Position numbers and translations under genes: made by a program. Of a DNA stretch of 64,000 nt, positions 1 through 61,901 are shown piece by piece. The notes below the pieces were generated by a model, which saw nothing but the letters and a program-made list of their open reading frames with translations, was not told where the DNA came from and made no database searches. Origin of the DNA: Methanosarcinales archaeon. Its GTDB lineage: Bacteria; Omnitrophota; Gorgyraeia; Duberdicusellales; 4484-171. The stretch lies in NCBI GenBank assembly GCA_048634245.1, contig JAIWAR010000001.1, positions 13,889 through 77,888 of the forward strand, in the 5' to 3' direction. Each line of letters opens with the position of its first letter. Positions within the stretch are counted from its first letter, which is position 1.

Positions 1-40
1 CTTTTGCCGATTTTTCAGATAAATTTAGGAATGTAAATTA

Positions 41-61
41 GTCCATAGTCCATAGTCCATG
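41..61 (+). repeat. Tandem heptamer (GTCCATA)x~3 ending in the palindrome GTCCATGGAC, about 30 nt upstream of the gspG start
   Basis: Read directly: gtccata gtccata gtccat g. GTCCATGGAC is self-complementary. Confidence 0.8.
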
Positions 62-87
62 GACGGGGGTTAAAAAAAGGGGGAGAG

Positions 88-20032: not shown

Positions 20033-21136
20033 ATGGTGGGTTTAAAGAGAGAGAGAAGATTTTTGGCTATAGCATTTCTGGCTTTAACTCTTTTTGGTAT
20101 TCTTATGATTTACGAATCATCAAGTGTATACGCGTTTAAGGCTGAAAAAGATGCCGCTTATTTTTTTAAACGGCAGTTTCTTTTCTTTCTTGTGGGCGTA
20201 TTTTTCTTCTTTATTACACTTTTAGCCGATTTAGAATTTTTAAGGCGGCATAGCAAGGAGTTTTTGCTTTTTACTTTCTTTTGCCTGGTGCTGATTATTT
20301 TTATTGGGAAGAAAGCCGGGGGAGCAAAGAGGTGGCTGCAATTAGGATCGTTTGGTTTTCAGCCTTCGGAAATGCTAAAGATTTCTTTTCTGCTTTATTG
20401 CGCGGATTATTGCCGAAGAAAACGAAGCCTTATAAAGAATGTTAGGCTGGGACTTTTTCCTTTGGGGATTGTTTTGTCCGCGGTATGCATTTTGCTTATT
20501 GTACAGCCGGATTTAGGAACAGCTGTTTTTTGGGTTCTTTGGACCATTCTTTTTCTTTTTCTCTTTGGTGCCCGGAAAAAGCATTTAGTTTTTGTTATTT
20601 TGACCGGAGCGACTATATCTTTTTTTCTTATAAAACTATATCCCTATCGTTTGAACCGAATCGTTGCTTATCTTAACCCCTTTGATGATCCCAGGGGGGC
20701 AGGGTTTCAATTGATTCAGTCTCAGATTGCTTATGGAGTTGGAGGTGTTTGGGGAGTGGGGTTAGGTGAAGGCTTGCAGAAGTTGCTTTTTTTGCCGGCG
20801 GCTCATACTGATTTTATTTTTTCAATTATTGCTGAGGAGTTTGGCCTTTGGGGTTCATTGGGTTTAATCTTTATCTTTTTTCTGATATTTCATAAGATGT
20901 CTAAAATCGCGGAATCTTCCCAGGATAGTTTTCGCAGGGGCCTTTTATGGGGCATAATCCTTATTTTTTTTCTAGAGATAGCGATAAATATTGGGGTTAG
21001 TTGCGGCCTTTTTCCTACCAAAGGGCTGCCTTTGCCTTTTATGAGCTACGGGGGAAGTAATTTAGTTGTTCACTGTATTCTTCTAGGCTTATTTTTTAAC
21101 GCTTCCCGCATTGACAAACCCAATACCGCTTATTGA
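20033..21136 (+). CDS. ftsW: SEDS-family peptidoglycan polymerase FtsW
   Basis: Ten-TM SEDS topology. Conserved FtsW/RodA motifs (PDLGTA, HTDFIFS, GLFPTKGLPLPF). Confidence 0.9.
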   Translation: MVGLKRERRFLAIAFLALTLFGILMIYESSSVYAFKAEKDAAYFFKRQFLFFLVGVFFFFITLLADLEFLRRHSKEFLLFTFFCLVLIIFIGKKAGGAKRWLQLGSFGFQPSEMLKISFLLYCADYCRRKRSLIKNVRLGLFPLGIVLSAVCILLIVQPDLGTAVFWVLWTILFLFLFGARKKHLVFVILTGATISFFLIKLYPYRLNRIVAYLNPFDDPRGAGFQLIQSQIAYGVGGVWGVGLGEGLQKLLFLPAAHTDFIFSIIAEEFGLWGSLGLIFIFFLIFHKMSKIAESSQDSFRRGLLWGIILIFFLEIAINIGVSCGLFPTKGLPLPFMSYGGSNLVVHCILLGLFFNASRIDKPNTAY

Positions 21137-21142
21137 GAATTT

Positions 21143-21167
21143 TTGATCAAAGCCAGGCTTTGATCAA
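21143..21167. promoter_or_regulatory. Perfect 25 bp palindrome TTGATCAAAGCC-A-GGCTTTGATCAA, 7 nt after the ftsW stop
   Basis: The 12 bp arms are exact reverse complements. A related copy lies at 39199..39223. Confidence 0.7.
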
Positions 21168-21198
21168 GATAAAAACAACTATAGCGTTAAAATAACCC

Positions 21199-21227
21199 TT
21201 GAACGAGGGCTACAATTTCTTTATAAT
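21199..21227 (+). promoter_or_regulatory. Putative internal sigma70-type promoter upstream of murG (TTGAAC - 17 nt - TATAAT)
   Basis: -35 element at 21199..21204, -10 element at 21222..21227. Confidence 0.45.
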
Positions 21228-21282: not shown

Positions 21283-22299
21283 ATGAAAGTATTATTAGCT
21301 TGCGAGAGAAGTGCCGGCCATATTTTTCCGGCTTTAGCGCTGGGTGAGAAAATAGAAAAAAAATCTAATATTTATTTTTTTGCTACTTCACCCTTTCTTA
21401 AAAAATACATCGAAAAACAAGGGTTTAATTGTTTTGGCAAGAGCTTAGTTTTCCGAAACTTAATTATTGAGGGTACCTGGCGTTTATTTGAGTCTATATA
21501 CCTTATTCTAAAATTGAGGCCGGAGAAAGTTATTGGATTCGGCGGCCGGGATTCATTTTTTCTGGTTTTATTCAGCTCTTTATTAAGGATAAGAACCGTT
21601 ATCTATGAGCCTAATATAAAGCTGGGAAAGGCAAACAGATTTCTTATGCCTTTTGTGGATGAGGTGTTGCGCGGTTTTGAAGGGGGAAGGGGTAAAAAGG
21701 GCAGAACTATCGGTATTCCTTTACGGAAAAATATAAAGAAAATAGATAAGTGCCAGGCTCGGAAGATTTTGAATTTTAAGGAGGAACCGGTTATCTTTTG
21801 TCTCGGAGGTAGTCAAGGTTCGTCTTTTCTTAATCATGTATTTGTAAGGTTTATCCAGAATTTTAAAGGGAATTGCCAGGTAATCCATCTTACCGGAAAG
21901 GATGAGTATCCGGAGATGCTATCCCGATATGCTGAAATAAAGAACAGGAGCTTTGTCAAAGATTTTTATTACCAGGTAGAGGTTTTATACAGCGCTGCTG
22001 ACTTAGTGGTTTCCCGGGCCGGAGCGGTTACTTTGGGAGAAATTTCATTTTATGGACTGCCGGTTATTTTGCTGCCTCATTTTAAGGCTGGCAGCCATCA
22101 GGTGGAAAATGCTTTGTATTTCGAAAGAAAAGGGGCAGCTAAGGTGTATTCGCAGGATGAGTTTTCTTTTGAAGATTTTAGCCGTTCGCTCAATAGGCTT
22201 ATCGAGGATAAGTGTTTGCGCCAAACTATGAAGGATAATTTAGGGAGGATAAAATTAGGGGTTAGCTATGAGGATTTTAATAATAGCAATTATTTTTAG
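21283..22299 (+). CDS. murG: Undecaprenyldiphospho-muramoylpentapeptide beta-N-acetylglucosaminyltransferase
   Basis: GT28 fold. N-terminal ERSAGHIFPALAL motif. Confidence 0.85.
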   Translation: MKVLLACERSAGHIFPALALGEKIEKKSNIYFFATSPFLKKYIEKQGFNCFGKSLVFRNLIIEGTWRLFESIYLILKLRPEKVIGFGGRDSFFLVLFSSLLRIRTVIYEPNIKLGKANRFLMPFVDEVLRGFEGGRGKKGRTIGIPLRKNIKKIDKCQARKILNFKEEPVIFCLGGSQGSSFLNHVFVRFIQNFKGNCQVIHLTGKDEYPEMLSRYAEIKNRSFVKDFYYQVEVLYSAADLVVSRAGAVTLGEISFYGLPVILLPHFKAGSHQVENALYFERKGAAKVYSQDEFSFEDFSRSLNRLIEDKCLRQTMKDNLGRIKLGVSYEDFNNSNYF

Positions 22300-34780: not shown

Positions 34781-35225
34781 GCTTAAAGTAATTGGGGTAG
34801 CGGCTTTACCCATTTTTGAGCTGCGCGGTGCTATTCCTCTGGGAGTGTCTTTAGGTATGCCCTTAGGACGTATCTACTTTTTGTCTCTTTTAGGTAATTT
34901 AATTCCCGTTCTACCTTTATTATTACTCTTTAAATATTTTTTTCATCATTTACAGAATATAAAATTCGTCGGTAAGTTTTTTGAGTGGTGGTTTTACAGG
35001 GTAGAGAAAAAGTCAAAGCTTGTTGAGCGTTGGGGTTTTTGGGGTTTAGTCCTTTTTGTGGCAATACCAATGCCGGTAACCGGAGCCTGGACCGGAACGG
35101 CAGCGGCAACGTTATTTGAGCTGTCAACGAGAAAAGCCTTTTTGGCGATCTTAATAGGTGTTGCTATCGCCGGGATAATAGTAAGTTTAGTGGCTAATTG
35201 CGCGGGGGCATTGATAGCCGGGTGA
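34758..35225 (+). CDS. Small polytopic membrane protein (COG2426-like)
   Basis: Four predicted TM helices. PIFELRGAIPLG motif. Confidence 0.5.
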   Translation: MSMVGVNELKVIGVAALPIFELRGAIPLGVSLGMPLGRIYFLSLLGNLIPVLPLLLLFKYFFHHLQNIKFVGKFFEWWFYRVEKKSKLVERWGFWGLVLFVAIPMPVTGAWTGTAAATLFELSTRKAFLAILIGVAIAGIIVSLVANCAGALIAG

Positions 35226-36073
35226 ATTGTAAAATGGCAGAAATAGTAGAGAAAAGAATCTTAGTCGATAGTTTAGGGGTAAGAATTATCCAATTGAAGG
35301 TAAGAGCTCCTTCTATTGCTGAAAAAGCAAAACCAGGCCAGTTTGTGGTTCTGATGACGGGCGAGGAAGGAGAAAGGATACCGTTAACTGTGGTTGAGGG
35401 GGACACAAAGAAGGGTGTTATTACCTTAATTGTTCAAGAAGCGGGGTTAACTACCAAGCTTTTAGGCGCTTTAGAGGTGGGAAAATCCCTTTACGCTTTA
35501 GTCGGCCCCCTAGGACATGCCACTGAGATGAAAAAATACGGAAAAGTAATTTTGGTGGGAGGCGGAGTTGGCATTGCCGAGATTTATCCCGTAGCAAAAG
35601 GGCTGAATAAAGCTGGAAATCACATAACTACTATATTAGGAGCAAGGACAAAAGATCTGTTAATTCTGGAAGAAGAGTTAGGGGCGATATCCGATCAGTT
35701 GCTTATTGCTACCGATGATGGTTCTTATGGGCAAAAAGGCTTTACCACTGATATCCTGAAGAATCTTCTCTATCGACTATCGACTATCGACTATCGACTA
35801 ATTTACGCTGTCGGCCCTATTCCCATGATGAGAAATGTCTCTTTAGTTACTAAAGATTCAGGGATAAAAACTTTGGTATCTTTAAATTCTTTAATGGTTG
35901 ATGCTACCGGTATGTGCGGAAGCTGCCGGGTTACTGTGGGCGGTGAGGTTAAATTTACTTGCGTAGACGGTCCGGAATTTGACGCTTCTTTAGTTGATTG
36001 GGATGAATTAACCAAGAGAAATAAAATATACGCTGAAAAAGAAAAACATATCTGTAATCTTTATAAATTATGA
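35198..36073 (+). CDS. nfnA: NfnA / sulfide dehydrogenase beta-like (PyrK-family FAD/[2Fe-2S] subunit); start probably at MAEIVEK (35233)
   Basis: FNR-like fold with a C-terminal CGSC...C cluster motif. Paired with the downstream GltD-like gene. Contains the heptamer array at 35771..35800. Confidence 0.75.
   Translation: MRGGIDSRVNCKMAEIVEKRILVDSLGVRIIQLKVRAPSIAEKAKPGQFVVLMTGEEGERIPLTVVEGDTKKGVITLIVQEAGLTTKLLGALEVGKSLYALVGPLGHATEMKKYGKVILVGGGVGIAEIYPVAKGLNKAGNHITTILGARTKDLLILEEELGAISDQLLIATDDGSYGQKGFTTDILKNLLYRLSTIDYRLIYAVGPIPMMRNVSLVTKDSGIKTLVSLNSLMVDATGMCGSCRVTVGGEVKFTCVDGPEFDASLVDWDELTKRNKIYAEKEKHICNLYKL
35771..35800 (+). repeat. In-frame heptanucleotide array (TATCGAC)x4 plus TA inside nfnA
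   Basis: 29/30 identical to 110..139. Encodes YRLSTIDYRL in the same codon phase. Confidence 0.9.
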
Positions 36074-37511: not shown

Positions 37512-39047
37512 TTAGAGCAGGGGGAGGTATTTTTTAAGTTCGTGCTGAGTGATCTGGATTCGATACTCTTCCCACTCTTTCTTTTTATTGAATAGAAATC
37601 TGCTAAAGATATGTTCACCAAGAGTATCACGTACAAACTTGCTATTTTCAGTTTCCGTGATAGCTTCAAGAAGATTCCCCGGTAAAGACGTAAGCCCTCT
37701 TCTTTCTCTTTCTTCCATAGCCATATGGTAGATATTAGGTTCAACCGGCGGGGTAAGCTTATATTTTTTTTCTATGCCTTCTAGCCCGGCAGCCAGCATT
37801 ACAGCAAAGGCAAGATAGGGGTTGCAAGCCGGATCCGGACATCTTAGTTCTACCCGGGTTGCTTTTTCATTTCCCGGCCGATATGAGGGAACGCGAAGCA
37901 GGGCAGTGCGGTTTTTTTGAGCCCAAGAAGCGTATACCGGAGCTTCAAAACCCGTAACCAGCCGTTTGTAGGAGTTTACCCACTGAGCAGTCAAAGAACA
38001 AATTTCCCGGGCATGTTTTAACTGTCCGGCAATAAAGCTTTTAGCAATTGTTGATAAGTGATGTTTGTCTTTTTTGTCGAAAAAAGCATTTTGCTTTTTC
38101 GTAAATAGAGATTGATGGACATGCATTCCTGAACCATTCACTCCAAAGAGGGGTTTTGGCATAAAAGTAGCGTATACGCCATTCTGCTGAGCGATTTCTT
38201 TAATTACGTATTTACTGGTTATTACAGCATCAGCCATGGTAAGGGCATCGTTATATTTAAGGTCGATTTCATGCTGGGATGGCGCAACTTCGTGGTGGCT
38301 TGCTTCCATAGGTATGCCTAGCTGTTCTAAGGTTCTTACGGTTCTATTTCTTAAGGTATTGGCTAAATCATTAGGTATTAATTCAAAATAAGAACCTTCA
38401 TCAATAATTTCCGGTTTTTTGTCAGATTTAAAATAAAAATATTCTATTTCCGGCCCCACATAGAATGTAAGGCCCATTTTTTCAGTCCTTGCCATTATCC
38501 GTTTTAAAACATGGCGGGGGTCACCGGCATAAGGAGTGTGGTCAGGATTGAGTATGTCGCAGAACATTCTGACAATTGGGTCTGTTTCTGTTGTCCAGGG
38601 TAATATTTTAAAAGTAGTTGGGTCCGGTAAGGCAATGATATCAGATTCTTGAGCTTCGGCAAACCCGGTAACTGAAGAACCATCAAAGCCTTTTCCGTGT
38701 TCTAAGGCATCCTTTAATTCCCCTTGAGTGATAGAGACGCACTTTAGAGTTCCTAAGATGTCTGCGAACCAAAGCTGTATTATTTTTATGTCGCTTCTAT
38801 ACACTTTCTCCAAGACTTCTTTTATAGCTTCTTTTCTGGGTTTTTTATCCGAAAGAACAAGCTGTGTTTGAGAGTATTTTTCTGTTTTGATTTCTCTTTC
38901 TGAATGAACCTGGTTTTTAGGTATTATGTATCGGTTTCCTACTTTTTCAGCATACAGATTTCCGTTTTTTATACGCTCTACAACAGCTTGACGGGAAATC
39001 CTTAAGATCTTTGCGGCTTGGGCCGGGCTTAAATATTCTTGTTCCAT
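37512..39047 (-). CDS. glnA: Glutamine synthetase catalytic protein fused to an N-terminal excisionase/MerR-type HTH
   Basis: N-terminus LSPAQAAKILRISRQAVVERIKNGNL (HTH). GS signature KPLFGVNGSGMHVHQSLF and a beta-grasp region. It is the only minus-strand gene in the window. Confidence 0.85.
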   Translation of the reverse strand: MEQEYLSPAQAAKILRISRQAVVERIKNGNLYAEKVGNRYIIPKNQVHSEREIKTEKYSQTQLVLSDKKPRKEAIKEVLEKVYRSDIKIIQLWFADILGTLKCVSITQGELKDALEHGKGFDGSSVTGFAEAQESDIIALPDPTTFKILPWTTETDPIVRMFCDILNPDHTPYAGDPRHVLKRIMARTEKMGLTFYVGPEIEYFYFKSDKKPEIIDEGSYFELIPNDLANTLRNRTVRTLEQLGIPMEASHHEVAPSQHEIDLKYNDALTMADAVITSKYVIKEIAQQNGVYATFMPKPLFGVNGSGMHVHQSLFTKKQNAFFDKKDKHHLSTIAKSFIAGQLKHAREICSLTAQWVNSYKRLVTGFEAPVYASWAQKNRTALLRVPSYRPGNEKATRVELRCPDPACNPYLAFAVMLAAGLEGIEKKYKLTPPVEPNIYHMAMEERERRGLTSLPGNLLEAITETENSKFVRDTLGEHIFSRFLFNKKKEWEEYRIQITQHELKKYLPLL

Positions 39048-39101
39048 CTCTTAATCTCCTTTGTAAAGTAAAATATAGTAATACATTACAAGTGTAAAGC
39101 A

Positions 39102-39120
39102 TAATTTTACATTTGTCAAG
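39102..39120. promoter_or_regulatory. Inverted repeat TGTAAA-N7-TTTACA in the glnA/carB divergent region
   Basis: Resembles the TnrA/GlnR-type TGTNA-N7-TNACA nitrogen operators. Further TGTAAA/TTTACA copies lie at 39062, 39146, and the palindrome GTAAT-AC-ATTAC at 39078..39089. Confidence 0.4.
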
Positions 39121-39198
39121 TATTTTTTATAGTTTTTTTACATTTTGCTAAAATAGAAGCAAATATTAGCCTTTTTAAGGGTTTTTAAGGAAAAACTG

Positions 39199-39223
39199 TT
39201 GATTAAAGCCTGGCTTTGACCAG
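39199..39223. promoter_or_regulatory. Second, imperfect copy of the AAAGCCWGGCTTT-core palindrome
   Basis: TTGATTAAAGCC-T-GGCTTTGACCAG, with 9/12 arm matches, followed by GATAAAGA as at 21168. Confidence 0.6.
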
Positions 39224-39266
39224 GATAAAGAGTTTATGAGGTGGGTGTTATAAAGATAATATTTTT

Positions 39267-39295
39267 CTTGACTGAATGGTAAAAATGTTGGATAA
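39267..39295 (+). promoter_or_regulatory. Putative carB promoter (TTGACT - 17 nt - GATAAT)
   Basis: -35 element at 39267..39272, -10 element at 39290..39295. Confidence 0.4.
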
Positions 39296-39315
39296 TCATT
39301 TCCAATGTGGATAAA

Positions 39316-39365
39316 GGCGTCCTTTCTGCTTACAATGAAGTAGAAGGGGCGCTTTTTCTGTTTTT
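39316..39365 (+). terminator. Terminator-like hairpin plus T-run inside the carB 5' leader (candidate attenuator)
   Basis: GGCGTCCTTTCT - 14 nt loop - AGAAGGGGCGCT (a 12 bp stem including 3 G-U pairs), followed by TTTTTCTGTTTTT. Lies ~35 nt before the carB ribosome-binding site. Confidence 0.45.
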
Positions 39366-39397
39366 AGGAAAATATATTTTATTATGGAGGGAAAGCT

Positions 39398-42300
39398 ATG
39401 CCGCGATATGAAGATATTAAGAAAATTTTAATTATTGGTTCTGGGCCGATAATAATCGGACAAGCTTGCGAGTTTGATTATTCCGGCACCCAGGCCTGCA
39501 AAGCTTTGAAAGAGGAAGGGTATGAGGTTGTTTTGGTTAATTCCAATCCTGCCACCATTATGACTGACCCGGGTATGGCTGATAAAACTTATATTGAGCC
39601 GCTTACTATCGAAAGCTTAGAAATGATTATTGAGAAAGAGAGGCCTGATGCGCTTCTTCCTAATTTAGGCGGCCAGACCGCCCTTAATCTAACTTCTGGC
39701 CTTCACAAGGCGGGAATTTTAGAGAAATACGGAGTTAAAATTATTGGCGTTGCGGTTGATGCTATTGAACGCGGAGAAGATCGTCTTGCTTTTAAAGAGA
39801 CAATGAATGAACTAAATATCCCTCTTCCGAAATCTGAAATCAGCCATTCTGTTGAGGAGGCTGAAGCTATAGCGCAAGATATAGGGTATCCGGTAGTCTT
39901 GCGGCCGGCTTATACAATGGGAGGAACCGGCGGAGGAATTGTTTATAACGTAGAAGAGTTAAGAACCATTGCGACTAGAGGATTGGCTGTAAGCCTTGTT
40001 CATCAAATTTTAGTTGAAGAAGCGGTTATAGGGTGGGAAGAGTTAGAGTTGGAAGTTGTACGGGATCACAAGAATCAGAAGATTACCGTATGCTTTATTG
40101 AGAATATTGATGCTATGGGTGTGCATACCGGGGATAGCTTTTGTTCGGCCCCTATGCTTACTGTAAAAGAAGAGATACAGAAGAAATTGCAAGAATATTC
40201 TTACCGAATAGTTGACGCAATCGGCGTTGTCGGCGGAACAAATGTTCAATTTGCCCACAATCCTAAGGATGATAGGTTGGTAGTTATAGAGATTAATCCC
40301 AGGACATCCCGTTCTTCAGCCCTTGCCTCAAAAGCAACCGGTTTTCCTATAGCGCGTATTTCGGCAAAGTTAGCTGTTGGGATATCAATGGATGAAATTC
40401 CTTATTGGAAGGAAGGAACGCTGGAGAAGTATGAACCCGGTGGTGATTATGTTGTTATTAAATTTGCCCGCTGGGCGTTTGAGAAGTTTCCTAAAGCAAA
40501 GGATGTTTTGGGAACACAAATGAAGGCTGTTGGCGAGGTAATGAGTATTGGAAAAACATTTAAGGAAGCATTTCAGAAGGCCATTCGTTCTTTGGAGATA
40601 GGCCGGTATGGTTTAGGGGTTGAAAAATTCAAAGCTCTTTCTCTGGGAAAATTAAAAGAAAGGTTAAGCGTACCTTCAAGTGAGCGGATATTCTTGATGT
40701 ATGAAGCCTTGCGTAAAGGTGTTTCTGTTGATGAGTTACACAAAGTTACCCATATTCATCCTTGGTTTATTCAGGAGATGAAGGATCTTGTTGATTTTGA
40801 AGAAGAGATAGCTAAAGATGGATGGAAGGGGTTATCTGATAAAAGGTTAATCAAGGCAAAGGAGTGGGGATTTTCAGATAAGTATTTAGCCGGTTTTTTT
40901 AAGATAAAAGAGAAAGAGGTAAGAGAAAGGAGGACAGGGCTTGGAAAGATTTCTCACTACAATGCGGTTCCGGTTAGCGGGGTAAAAAATGCGGCTTATT
41001 ATTACTCTAGCTATAGTGGAGAAGATGAGGTGCCGGTATCACGGAATAAGAAAATATTAATTTTGGGCGGCGGGCCTAACCGAATTGGCCAGGGTATAGA
41101 GTTTGATTATACTTGTGTCCACGCGGCCTTTGCTTTACGGGATGAGGGGTATGAATCAGTCATGGTAAATTGTAATCCTGAGACGGTATCTACCGATTAT
41201 GATACTTCCAGCAAACTTTACTTTGAACCTCTGACAGTAGAAGATGTGTTGACTATTTACGAAAAAGAAAAACCTGACGGGGTAATTGTCCAATTTGGCG
41301 GACAAACGCCTTTAAATATTGCTCAAGAGCTAGAAGATAACGGTGTAAAAATTTTAGGCACAACGCCGAAGAATATTCGTTTAGCAGAAGACAGAGAATA
41401 TTTTAAGGAGAGGATGATTGCTCTTGATATTCTTCAGCCTGAGAGCGGCATAGCGCGGTCATTGGATGAGGCTGTAGAAATCGCCGGGGAAATCGGTTAC
41501 CCTCTTATGGTACGTCCTTCTTTTGTTTTAGGGGGGAGGGGCATGGAAATTATTTATAATGAGGGAATGCTGCGAAAATATGCCGAACGCGCCATTAAGG
41601 TAAATCCGGAATTCCCCATGCTTATTGATAGATTTCTCGAGCATGCCATTGAGGCGGAAGTCGATGCTCTTTCTGATGGAGAGGATGTACACGTTGCTGC
41701 CGTGATGGAACATATAGAGTTTGCCGGGGTTCATTCCGGTGATTCTGCTTGTGCTATTCCGACCAGGACCATAAAGCAAAAGCATCTAAAGATTATTGAG
41801 GAATATACTGTTAAAATAGCCAAAGAGCTTAGGGTTGCCGGGCTTATGAATATCCAGTATGCTATATGCGATGATAAAGTTTATGTATTGGAAGCTAATC
41901 CCAGAGCATCCCGGACAGTGCCTTTGGTTTCAAAAATTATGGGGCTTTCTATGGCACGCATAGCAACGCAGTTGATGCTTGGTAAAAAAATAAAAGATTT
42001 CCCGGAGCTTAAAAAACCTCGTAAGATTCCTTATGTAGGCGTTAAAGAAGCAGTTTTTCCTTTTAATATGTTTCCTGAAGTTGACCCCTTGTTGGGGCCC
42101 GAGATGAGGGCTACGGGAGAGGTTATGGGAATTGCTGATACTTTTGGGCTCGCTTTTTATAAAGCTCAGGTAGCCGCAAATTTAAAGCTTCCCCTGGAGG
42201 GAAATATCCTGTTTACCGTAACTGATAAAGATAAACCTGAAGTACTTCATGTAGCTAAAGGGTTTAATAAGCTGGGATTTAATATTTACGCTACAGAAGG

Positions 42301-42604
42301 AACCAGCCGTTTTCTTAAAGAAAACGGAATAAGCAATATAGAGGTAAAAAAACTTCACCAGGGAAGACCTAATCTTGCTGATATGATTAAAAACGGAGAT
42401 ATTCATCTTGTGATAAATACGCCTATTGGAAGTAATAGTAAATATGATGATAGCTATATTCGTATTATGGCTATACAGCAGAAGATTCCTTATATAACAT
42501 CCATGGCTGCCGCTCTTGCCAGTCTTGAGGGCGTGGAGGCTCTTAGAAAGGAAAAAACTTTACCAAAGTCTCTTCAGGAATATCATAAAGAGATTAAGGA
42601 TTAA
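39398..42604 (+). CDS. carB: Carbamoyl-phosphate synthase large subunit
   Basis: Two ATP-grasp halves and an MGS-like C-terminal domain over 1068 aa. No carA is adjacent. Confidence 0.95.
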   Translation: MPRYEDIKKILIIGSGPIIIGQACEFDYSGTQACKALKEEGYEVVLVNSNPATIMTDPGMADKTYIEPLTIESLEMIIEKERPDALLPNLGGQTALNLTSGLHKAGILEKYGVKIIGVAVDAIERGEDRLAFKETMNELNIPLPKSEISHSVEEAEAIAQDIGYPVVLRPAYTMGGTGGGIVYNVEELRTIATRGLAVSLVHQILVEEAVIGWEELELEVVRDHKNQKITVCFIENIDAMGVHTGDSFCSAPMLTVKEEIQKKLQEYSYRIVDAIGVVGGTNVQFAHNPKDDRLVVIEINPRTSRSSALASKATGFPIARISAKLAVGISMDEIPYWKEGTLEKYEPGGDYVVIKFARWAFEKFPKAKDVLGTQMKAVGEVMSIGKTFKEAFQKAIRSLEIGRYGLGVEKFKALSLGKLKERLSVPSSERIFLMYEALRKGVSVDELHKVTHIHPWFIQEMKDLVDFEEEIAKDGWKGLSDKRLIKAKEWGFSDKYLAGFFKIKEKEVRERRTGLGKISHYNAVPVSGVKNAAYYYSSYSGEDEVPVSRNKKILILGGGPNRIGQGIEFDYTCVHAAFALRDEGYESVMVNCNPETVSTDYDTSSKLYFEPLTVEDVLTIYEKEKPDGVIVQFGGQTPLNIAQELEDNGVKILGTTPKNIRLAEDREYFKERMIALDILQPESGIARSLDEAVEIAGEIGYPLMVRPSFVLGGRGMEIIYNEGMLRKYAERAIKVNPEFPMLIDRFLEHAIEAEVDALSDGEDVHVAAVMEHIEFAGVHSGDSACAIPTRTIKQKHLKIIEEYTVKIAKELRVAGLMNIQYAICDDKVYVLEANPRASRTVPLVSKIMGLSMARIATQLMLGKKIKDFPELKKPRKIPYVGVKEAVFPFNMFPEVDPLLGPEMRATGEVMGIADTFGLAFYKAQVAANLKLPLEGNILFTVTDKDKPEVLHVAKGFNKLGFNIYATEGTSRFLKENGISNIEVKKLHQGRPNLADMIKNGDIHLVINTPIGSNSKYDDSYIRIMAIQQKIPYITSMAAALASLEGVEALRKEKTLPKSLQEYHKEIKD

Positions 42605-44134: not shown

Positions 44135-44230
44135 ATAAAAAAGGGGAGGCTTCTATTTTTTTTAAAAAGATAATCGTAGACGCAAAAAAACAGAAACGTC
44201 CCCTTTTTTTCAAATGATGGAGGTAACAAG

Positions 44231-50843: not shown

Positions 50844-50918
50844 TGCCCGGTGGTGTAATCGGTAACACATCAGGTTTTGGATCTGAGTTTCCTGGTTCGA
50901 GTCCAGGCCGGGCAACCA
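50844..50918 (+). tRNA. tRNA-Gln (anticodon UUG), CCA encoded
   Basis: Manual fold: acceptor stem TGCCCGG/CCGGGCA, D-arm GTGT/ACAC, anticodon stem TCAGG/TCTGA with loop TTTTGGA, T-arm CCTGG-TTCGAGT-CCAGG, discriminator A, then CCA. Confidence 0.85.
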
Positions 50919-50969
50919 ATTTCTTACTTTTTTTAGTAGTTGATTTTGTGAATAAAAAGCAAAATAATT

Positions 50970-51105
50970 TTCCCGGTGGTGTAATCGGTAACACATCAGG
51001 TTTTGGATCTGAGTTTCCTGGTTGAGCGACCGAGCGACGTGCGATAAAAGAAGGCGAGTTAAGCGAGGGAGTGCCGGGTAATCTCGGCGCCAGGCCCGGC
51101 AACCA
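50970..51105 (+). pseudogene. Second tRNA-Gln(UUG) copy disrupted by a ~68 nt replacement inside the T-loop, with two acceptor-stem mismatches
   Basis: The 5' end through the anticodon arm and the T-stem 5' half is identical to the upstream tRNA. After CCTGGTT the sequence diverges (GAGCGACCGAGCGACG...) before rejoining at CAGGCCCGGCAACCA. Confidence 0.5.
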
Positions 51106-57629: not shown

Positions 57630-57671
57630 AATATTGGTTGAAGCCGGGGCTCAATCAAGGGGGCGTAGAGG

Positions 57672-61835: not shown

Positions 61836-61901
61836 ACCCCTCGGAATACTCGGGGTTAATTTTCTCAATTTGGCAATTTCGAAAACTAAGGAGGTATAAA
61901 T

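Follow-up and report, generated by a model that had tools for sequence, protein, structure and literature searches.

Two intergenic spacers in a 64,000-nt stretch of DNA (hereafter, the window) carry closely similar copies of a 25-bp palindrome, which we interpret, with a probability of about 55%, as a young, lineage-specific, low-copy, REP-like dispersed extragenic repeat of one Omnitrophota species. At least three copies exist, two in the window and one in a third locus represented by the near-identical metagenomic contigs L021 and L030; all are extragenic and, as far as can be seen, the motif is confined to a single species-level lineage. Relatives keep the functional promoter and operator blocks of these spacers almost base for base, whereas the 25-mers are found in one lineage only, which makes recent copying the best explanation of their distribution. 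We class the palindrome among the known short dispersed extragenic palindromes, an ordinary feature, and not as a RAYT-associated REP, a MITE, a terminator or an operator.

Copies of the palindrome and their genomic context

Copy 1 (TTGATCAAAGCC-A-GGCTTTGATCAA) has two 12-nt arms of perfect complementarity around a single central nucleotide. Six nucleotides separate it from the stop codon of ftsW (ORF 20033-21136; TIGR02614), and the ATG of murG (ORF 21283-22299) lies 115 nt further on. Copy 2 (TTGATTAAAGCC-T-GGCTTTGACCAG), a 23/25 match to copy 1, occupies the spacer between the divergent glnA (ORF 37512-39047, minus strand), whose product is a glutamine synthetase of type I bearing an excisionase-type HTH domain at its N-terminus, and carB (ORF 39398-42604); it is the sole copy that cannot sit in a 3' UTR. 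It is also the most decayed of the copies: relative to copy 1, it carries three transitions in the arms, none of them compensated, in addition to the central A/T exchange. Both copies are directly followed by GATAAA, which may be part of the repeat unit or a preferred target. The gene calls, the start of the palindrome at the seventh nucleotide past ftsW and ahead of the murG promoter, and the second copy with its common core and flank had all been proposed from the sequence alone, and they hold (Table 1). The MurG and HTH-GlnA homologues belong to Candidatus Omnitrophica/Omnitrophota, including Ca. Susulua stagnicola at 64% identity, and assign the window to this phylum.

Table 1. Palindrome copies and neighbouring elements in the window
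Feature	Position	Strand	Remarks
Copy 1	21143..21167	.	ftsW-murG spacer; perfect 25-bp palindrome
GATAAA flank	21168..21173	+	directly after copy 1, common to copy 2
murG promoter, TTGAAC-17-TATAAT, sigma-70-like	21199..21227	+	31 nt past copy 1; kept in relatives
Copy 2	39199..39223	.	divergent HTH-glnA / carB spacer
GATAAA flank	39224..39229	+	directly after copy 2, common to copy 1
carB promoter, TTGACT-17-GATAAT, sigma-70-like	39268..39296	+	44 nt past copy 2; kept in relatives
Possible decayed copy, TTGGTTGAAGCCGGGGCTCAATCAA	57634..57658	.	rpsR-rplI spacer; 19/25, ungapped

When JGI metagenome contigs were scanned with TGRTYAAAGCCWGGCTTTRAYCA, four stretches matched, three of them cyanobacterial coding sequence. 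The fourth, L021 (NKAJ01002055.1), carries TTGATTAAAGCCAGGCTTTGATCAA, a 24/25 match, and its proteins fall into clusters named Omnitrophota. L030, a 99% twin of L021, comes from SRR19020600, a sister run of the source of L001, a Logan contig of the window's species. L021 and L030 probably belong to that species as well, judging from a GC content equal to that of the window (0.387), the origin in sister SRA runs and a matching pattern of relatives, the next relatives of L021 deriving from the same samples as those of the window; tetranucleotide composition does not discriminate in this respect. The L030 palindrome begins 2 nt past the stop codon of the upstream gene and ends 27 nt before a conserved promoter, TTGACA-17-TAATAT, which serves a GGDEF/MshEN/type IV pilus operon. 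The immediate flanks are AATTT/GATAAA for copy 1, AACTG/GATAAA for copy 2 and TTAATT/AATAAG for the L030 copy, and xTGxTxAAAGCC is kept in all six half-sites of the three copies.

Neither chance nor misassembly accounts for these sequences. At up to 3 mismatches, a 24-mer pattern matches only copies 1 and 2 in the window and nothing in 100 dinucleotide shuffles, and by our own arithmetic a perfect 12+12 palindrome is expected ~0.004 times per 64 kb (64,000 x 4^-12); a chance origin of the pair is thereby ruled out. The 13-bp core alone, with 2 mismatches, yields seven matches in the window against 4.1 expected, which is not above chance, so the signal resides in the full 25-mer. Copy 1 is also present in the independent contig L001, which is 99.94% identical to the window over 3,175 nt, and the third-locus copy is found in both L021 and L030, which excludes an assembly artefact. 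According to an ORF-based map, 96.5% of the window is coding, and the exclusively intergenic placement is therefore non-random: copies 1 and 2, as well as a weak candidate on the rplI side, all fall within the 2,238 intergenic nucleotides (3.5% of 64,000).

This weak candidate had been placed at 57637..57663 in the sequence-only reading. A related sequence before rplI is indeed possible, although the better, ungapped alignment is the one given in Table 1, starting 4 nt past the rpsR stop codon. At six mismatches, the window holds three matches where mononucleotide shuffles predict 0.1, two of the three being in coding sequence, and the predicted fold of the candidate is weak (-8.7 kcal/mol, z = -0.8); we regard it as a possible decayed copy.

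The same-species contigs available for comparison (L001; L032, 99.3%; L033, 97.7%) are all short. L032 starts at window position 21184, 16 nt past the first palindrome, and L033 ends at 39155, 44 nt before the second, possibly owing to a low-coverage coincidence or to graph breaks at a repeat. Palindromic tetramers are under-represented across the window (GATC, 110 versus 221 expected; CTAG, 42 versus 120; GTAC, 59 versus 115), which suggests restriction-modification pressure; copy 1 nonetheless holds two GATC sites and a central CCWGG. Among other repeats, runs of tandem heptamers occupy window positions 33-65, 108-140 and 35757-35801: TATCGAC, in three to four units, is found within two coding regions, namely, a prepilin-like N-terminus and ORF 35198-36073, and a related run of three GTCCATA units lies directly upstream of the first heptamer ORF. 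The runs match one another both directly and inverted. The window further encodes a tRNA-Gln(TTG) (50844-50918), whose 5' portion recurs 126 nt on as a duplicate of ~55 nt with 94% identity (50961-51023), which ARAGORN does not call as a tRNA and which may be an integration or rearrangement scar.

Orthologous spacers in related genomes

The closest available relatives, at 70-89% protein identity, keep the flanking genes and the promoter blocks and lack the palindrome at all three loci. In the ftsW-murG spacer, it is absent from both L002 (79% identity in MurG) and L003 (70%), whereas the block GTTAAAATAACCCTTGAA.GAGGGCTA...TTTCTTTATAATA, which holds the predicted murG promoter, is nearly invariant in the two. 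The distance from the ftsW stop codon to this block is 12-15 nt in the relatives versus 48 nt in the window, and the surplus of ~33-36 nt corresponds to the palindrome with its immediate flank. Similarly, no palindrome is found in the glnA-carB spacers of L025 (89% identity in GlnA), L027 (88%) and L026 (81%), all of which keep the glnA promoter/operator block as well as the carB promoter and leader hairpin; the segment that carries the palindrome in the window is unalignable or deleted in these three contigs.

The spacer ahead of the GGDEF operon is devoid of the palindrome in L031 (78%) and in L034 and L035 (81%). The alignment of L030 with L034 runs to the stop codon and resumes at AATAAGCAGC, directly after the palindrome, so that the unit at this locus is the bare 25-mer; homology with the relative breaks within 1-2 nt of the right-hand edge. 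The AATAAG/A-rich flank of the L030 copy is ancestral, as it is present in L034, which is without the palindrome. No flanking direct duplication and no clean empty site are visible at any copy. At two loci, the spacers of the relatives are as long as, or longer than, the palindrome-bearing ones, so that what is seen there is replacement and not simple insertion. Flanking gene order around the window copies is identical to that in the relatives.

These comparisons bear directly on the proposal, made from the sequence alone, that the palindrome may be a site for a dimeric DNA-binding protein, for which lack of conservation in orthologous intergenic regions had been named as the refuting outcome. 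All three loci lack the palindrome in the relatives, next to promoter blocks that are nearly invariant, and the proposal is disfavoured. The absence of the palindrome where the neighbouring promoters are kept argues against an established operator and for a repeat element.

The conserved parts of the glnA-carB spacer have features of their own. An HTH_17/excisionase-type domain is found on the glutamine synthetase in essentially all of the best 120 Omnitrophota homologues, and the glnA promoter region at 39070-39135, with its TTACA/TGTAA repeats (ATTACAAGTGTAAAGCATAATTTTACATTTGTCAAG), has stayed nearly unchanged in three relatives; judged from sequence, HTH-GlnA and this block are a candidate auto-regulatory pair of protein and operator. 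Binding of copy 2 by the HTH-GlnA fusion is unsupported, given that the conserved operator-like block differs from the palindrome and that the palindrome itself is not conserved. On the opposite side of the spacer, the carB 5' leader (39297-39375, plus strand) forms a long hairpin followed by a U-run, which four genomes have in common, the changes among them being mostly one-sided. The leader is a candidate attenuator responding to pyrimidines; the match to the Rfam PyrR-binding site is sub-threshold (21.1 bits versus a gathering score of 54).

Outside these loci, a scan for GRTYAAAGCCWGGCTTTRAYC of one genome per species (185,579 species) produced no match in any record titled Omnitrophota and 17 scattered matches with unrelated flanks, in taxa such as Pseudomonas, Deltaproteobacteria and Bacillota. 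The scans took exact matches to a degenerate pattern, such that diverged copies would be missed. About 115 kb of the relatives' loci contain no match with fewer than five mismatches, whereas a viral scan gave two unrelated matches of 64% GC, and BLAST of a 35-mer against plasmids and phages returned only matches with E >= 0.1 inside unrelated genes. Three Deltaproteobacteria MAG contigs (L005, position 6609; L008, 4474; L012, 2420) have in common a GGTCAAAGCCAGGCTTTGATC palindrome with identical longer flanks, which is an unrelated conserved or repeated element of that group.

Relation to known repeats and alternative explanations

REP elements of the RAYT type are defined by a GT(A/G)G head, a palindrome that is rich in G+C and broken by 2-4 bases, a number of tens to hundreds of copies and a RAYT gene flanked by two inverted copies (Nunvar et al. 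2010, PMC2817692); REPs and REPINs are mobilised by RAYT Y1 transposases (PMC2817692; Bertels & Rainey 2011, PMC3116915). The Omnitrophota palindrome resembles them in being short (within the REP range of 20-40 nt), hairpin-forming and strictly extragenic, all copies being non-coding; in its species-specific sequence, absent from the orthologous spacers and from the fetched loci of relatives; and in the frequent position of copies directly past stop codons. The differences are equally clear. No GTAG or GTGG adjoins any copy on either strand, and the stem is AT-rich outside, with only the 6-bp core being richer in G+C (TTGATCAAAGCC has 5/12 G/C), and is interrupted by a single central nucleotide. 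Furthermore, three copies are known here versus tens to hundreds, and no inverted doublets of the REPIN/BIME kind were seen; the metagenome scan, which added one copy (L021) and not dozens, argues against a high-copy REP. A tblastn search for a Y1_Tnp gene in the window was negative.

REP/RAYT systems do exist in the clade, with a sequence different from that of the palindrome, as indicated by L034, the relative from the sample that also gave L027. This contig encodes a RAYT-like Y1_Tnp protein of 172 aa (279-836; 25.6 bits versus a gathering score of 23), directly upstream of which lies a classical GTAG-headed REP, GTAGGGACAGGTCGTGACCTGTCC, with an inverted copy inside the ORF, between the HUH and Tyr motifs. 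A MITE is ruled out, as the unit is the bare 25-bp palindrome: there are no terminal inverted repeats around an internal segment of ~50-500 bp and no flanking direct duplication that would mark a target site. The sequence-only reading had left the choice between a protein-binding site and a REP/MITE-like element. The repeat-like option is the one favoured here, the operator being disfavoured by its absence from the orthologous spacers, and the label proves loosely right as far as REP-like is concerned; its MITE part falls with the bare 25-bp unit, and a RAYT-type REP with the missing GT(A/G)G head and the stem that is not GC-rich.

We consider it unlikely that the palindrome is an operator for a recently acquired dimeric DNA-binding protein, be it a transcription factor or a nucleoid or segregation protein, recognising two TTGATYAAAGCC half-sites. 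The perfect or near-perfect dyad symmetry and the half-site positions retained in six of six cases would suit such a protein, as would the location of the three copies 27-44 nt upstream of a conserved sigma-70-like -35 element and, with the RATAA flank taken into account, in a common orientation towards the downstream gene; copy 2 has moreover kept its sequence despite a compromised hairpin, which fits recognition of duplex DNA. However, relatives that retain the core promoters and other operator-like blocks lack the palindrome in the orthologous promoters, and the genes downstream of the copies (murG, carB, GGDEF/type IV pilus) have no common function or pathway. The distance from the palindrome centre to the -35 element is 44 nt for murG, 57 nt for carB and 40 nt for the GGDEF operon, that is, it varies by 4-17 bp without helical phasing, so that neither a single helical face nor a fixed activator position is defined. 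Thus, at none of the three loci did we find the retention in orthologous promoters and the consistent promoter position that characterise a regulon. The copies are more alike than sites of a single regulon usually are, the species-representative scan revealed no similar motif in another Omnitrophota genome, and a literature text search with the core and arm sequences returned primers only and no matching operator. By inspection, there is no convincing -24/-12 element of a sigma-54 site downstream of copies 1 and 2.

Comparison with known palindromic sites leads to a similar picture. FNR/CRP-type operators consist of TTGAT...ATCAA boxes with a 4-nt spacing, and KorB binds the 13-bp OB, TTTAGCSGCTAAA. 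The palindrome resembles these in dyad symmetry, in the outer TTGAT/ATCAA pentamers and in the 6+1+6 core, but the pentamers are 15 nt apart versus 4, the core sequence is unrelated to the KorB OB, and the palindrome is neither kept in orthologous promoters nor accompanied by any regulon logic. DNA uptake sequences occur as inverted pairs behind genes in Neisseria (DUS) and Haemophilus (USS), and the palindrome could be likened to them, being a 12-mer and its inverted counterpart placed behind genes. Yet isolated half-sites are not over-represented: with up to one mismatch, TTGATYAAAGCC has five matches in the window, three of them inside palindromes, leaving two outside versus 1.35 expected, and a DUS-like half-site is accordingly rejected.

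The palindrome folds as RNA into a stem of 11-13 bp with a 3-nt loop, and not the 1-nt loop suggested by its symmetry in the sequence-only reading. The copy 1 hairpin reaches -15.1 kcal/mol as RNA (z = -4.3) and -10.1 kcal/mol as DNA, and that of the L030 copy -9.9 kcal/mol in the sense and -13.6 in the antisense orientation (z about -4), whereas the palindrome hairpin of copy 2 is weakened, another fold having the lowest energy. A stable hairpin directly past a stop codon, as in two of the three copies, is reminiscent of an intrinsic terminator, but the real terminators of this genome combine a G+C-rich stem with a T-run (e.g., 44137-44209, 61840-61870 and the carB leader), and no U-tract follows the palindrome at any copy (tails GATAAAAAC, GATAAAGAG and AATAAGCAG). 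The palindromes were not called in a terminator scan, and copy 2 lies between divergent genes with no gene upstream. We thus agree with the sequence-only reading that an intrinsic terminator is unlikely. A known RNA family is rejected, since, at gathering thresholds, only tRNA was detected in the window and the two spacers gave only noise (E up to 5).

Another role at the RNA level, be it in stabilising the 3' end, in terminating or insulating transcription units without a U-tract or in modulating translation termination near the stop codon, appears rather improbable as the reason for the palindrome. E. coli REPs within a few nucleotides of the stop codon reportedly modulate translation termination, and the distances observed here (6 nt past ftsW for copy 1, 2 nt in L030 and 4 nt past rpsR for the weak copy), the stability of the two better hairpins and the independent promoter after each copy are in line with a role of this kind. 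It sits poorly with copy 2, which has no upstream ORF and a broken hairpin, with the L030 copy, the better hairpin of which is on the antisense strand, with the lack of a U-tract in a window that does contain canonical terminators, and with the relatives, which have no hairpin of any sort at the ftsW-murG and GGDEF-operon positions. Far more improbable is a tyrosine recombinase core site with 9-bp arms (TTGATCAAA) and a 7-bp spacer (GCCWGGC), or the solo end of a decayed mobile element. By inspection, the arm-spacer-arm geometry is compatible with such a site, and the truncated tRNA-Gln duplicate hints at past integration in the window; nevertheless, the spacer is itself palindromic and hence lacks directionality, no recombinase or transposase gene is found nearby, the gene order is that of the relatives and plasmid and phage collections yielded no relevant match.

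Possible origin and implications

Returning to the preferred interpretation of the palindrome as a young REP-like repeat, copies of a single short hairpin-forming unit would have entered several intergenic spacers in their unconstrained part. The spread would have occurred by transposition or by recombination-mediated movement of a hairpin-forming single strand, and not through independent selection for a protein-binding site; the mobiliser could most plausibly be a hairpin-recognising HUH/Y1 enzyme of the kind encoded by L034. Given that 96.5% of the window is coding, the only places to tolerate copies would be a long divergent spacer or the gap from a stop codon to the following promoter, and the position right behind stop codons probably reflects where insertion is tolerated. 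When transcribed at mRNA ends, as may be the case behind ftsW and behind the gene that precedes the GGDEF operon, a hairpin of -10 to -15 kcal/mol at 2-6 nt from the stop codon could happen to shield the 3' end or influence translation termination, which we would regard as a side effect and not as the element's reason to exist.

The practical value of this case is mainly one of caution. A palindrome this striking and perfect, ahead of murG and carB, readily suggests a regulon, whereas the relatives show that it is a recent lineage-specific addition beside truly conserved promoter and operator blocks. To our knowledge, no REP-like repeats have been described in Omnitrophota. If the palindrome has been mobilised, it would provide a small data point on such repeats in a phylum without a cultured model and could serve as a strain marker, although no long-standing question is opened thereby. 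A more specific and quite speculative possibility is that the palindrome represents a hitherto undescribed class of headless, AT-rich hairpin mini-repeats in Omnitrophota, which an HUH/Y1 enzyme would move in single-stranded form and insert beside a YTTATY target; TTTATC, TTTATC and CTTATT precede the copies on one strand, the last being ancestral flank. If this were true, REP/RAYT-type domesticated transposition would extend to an uncultivated phylum, with a different recognition grammar.
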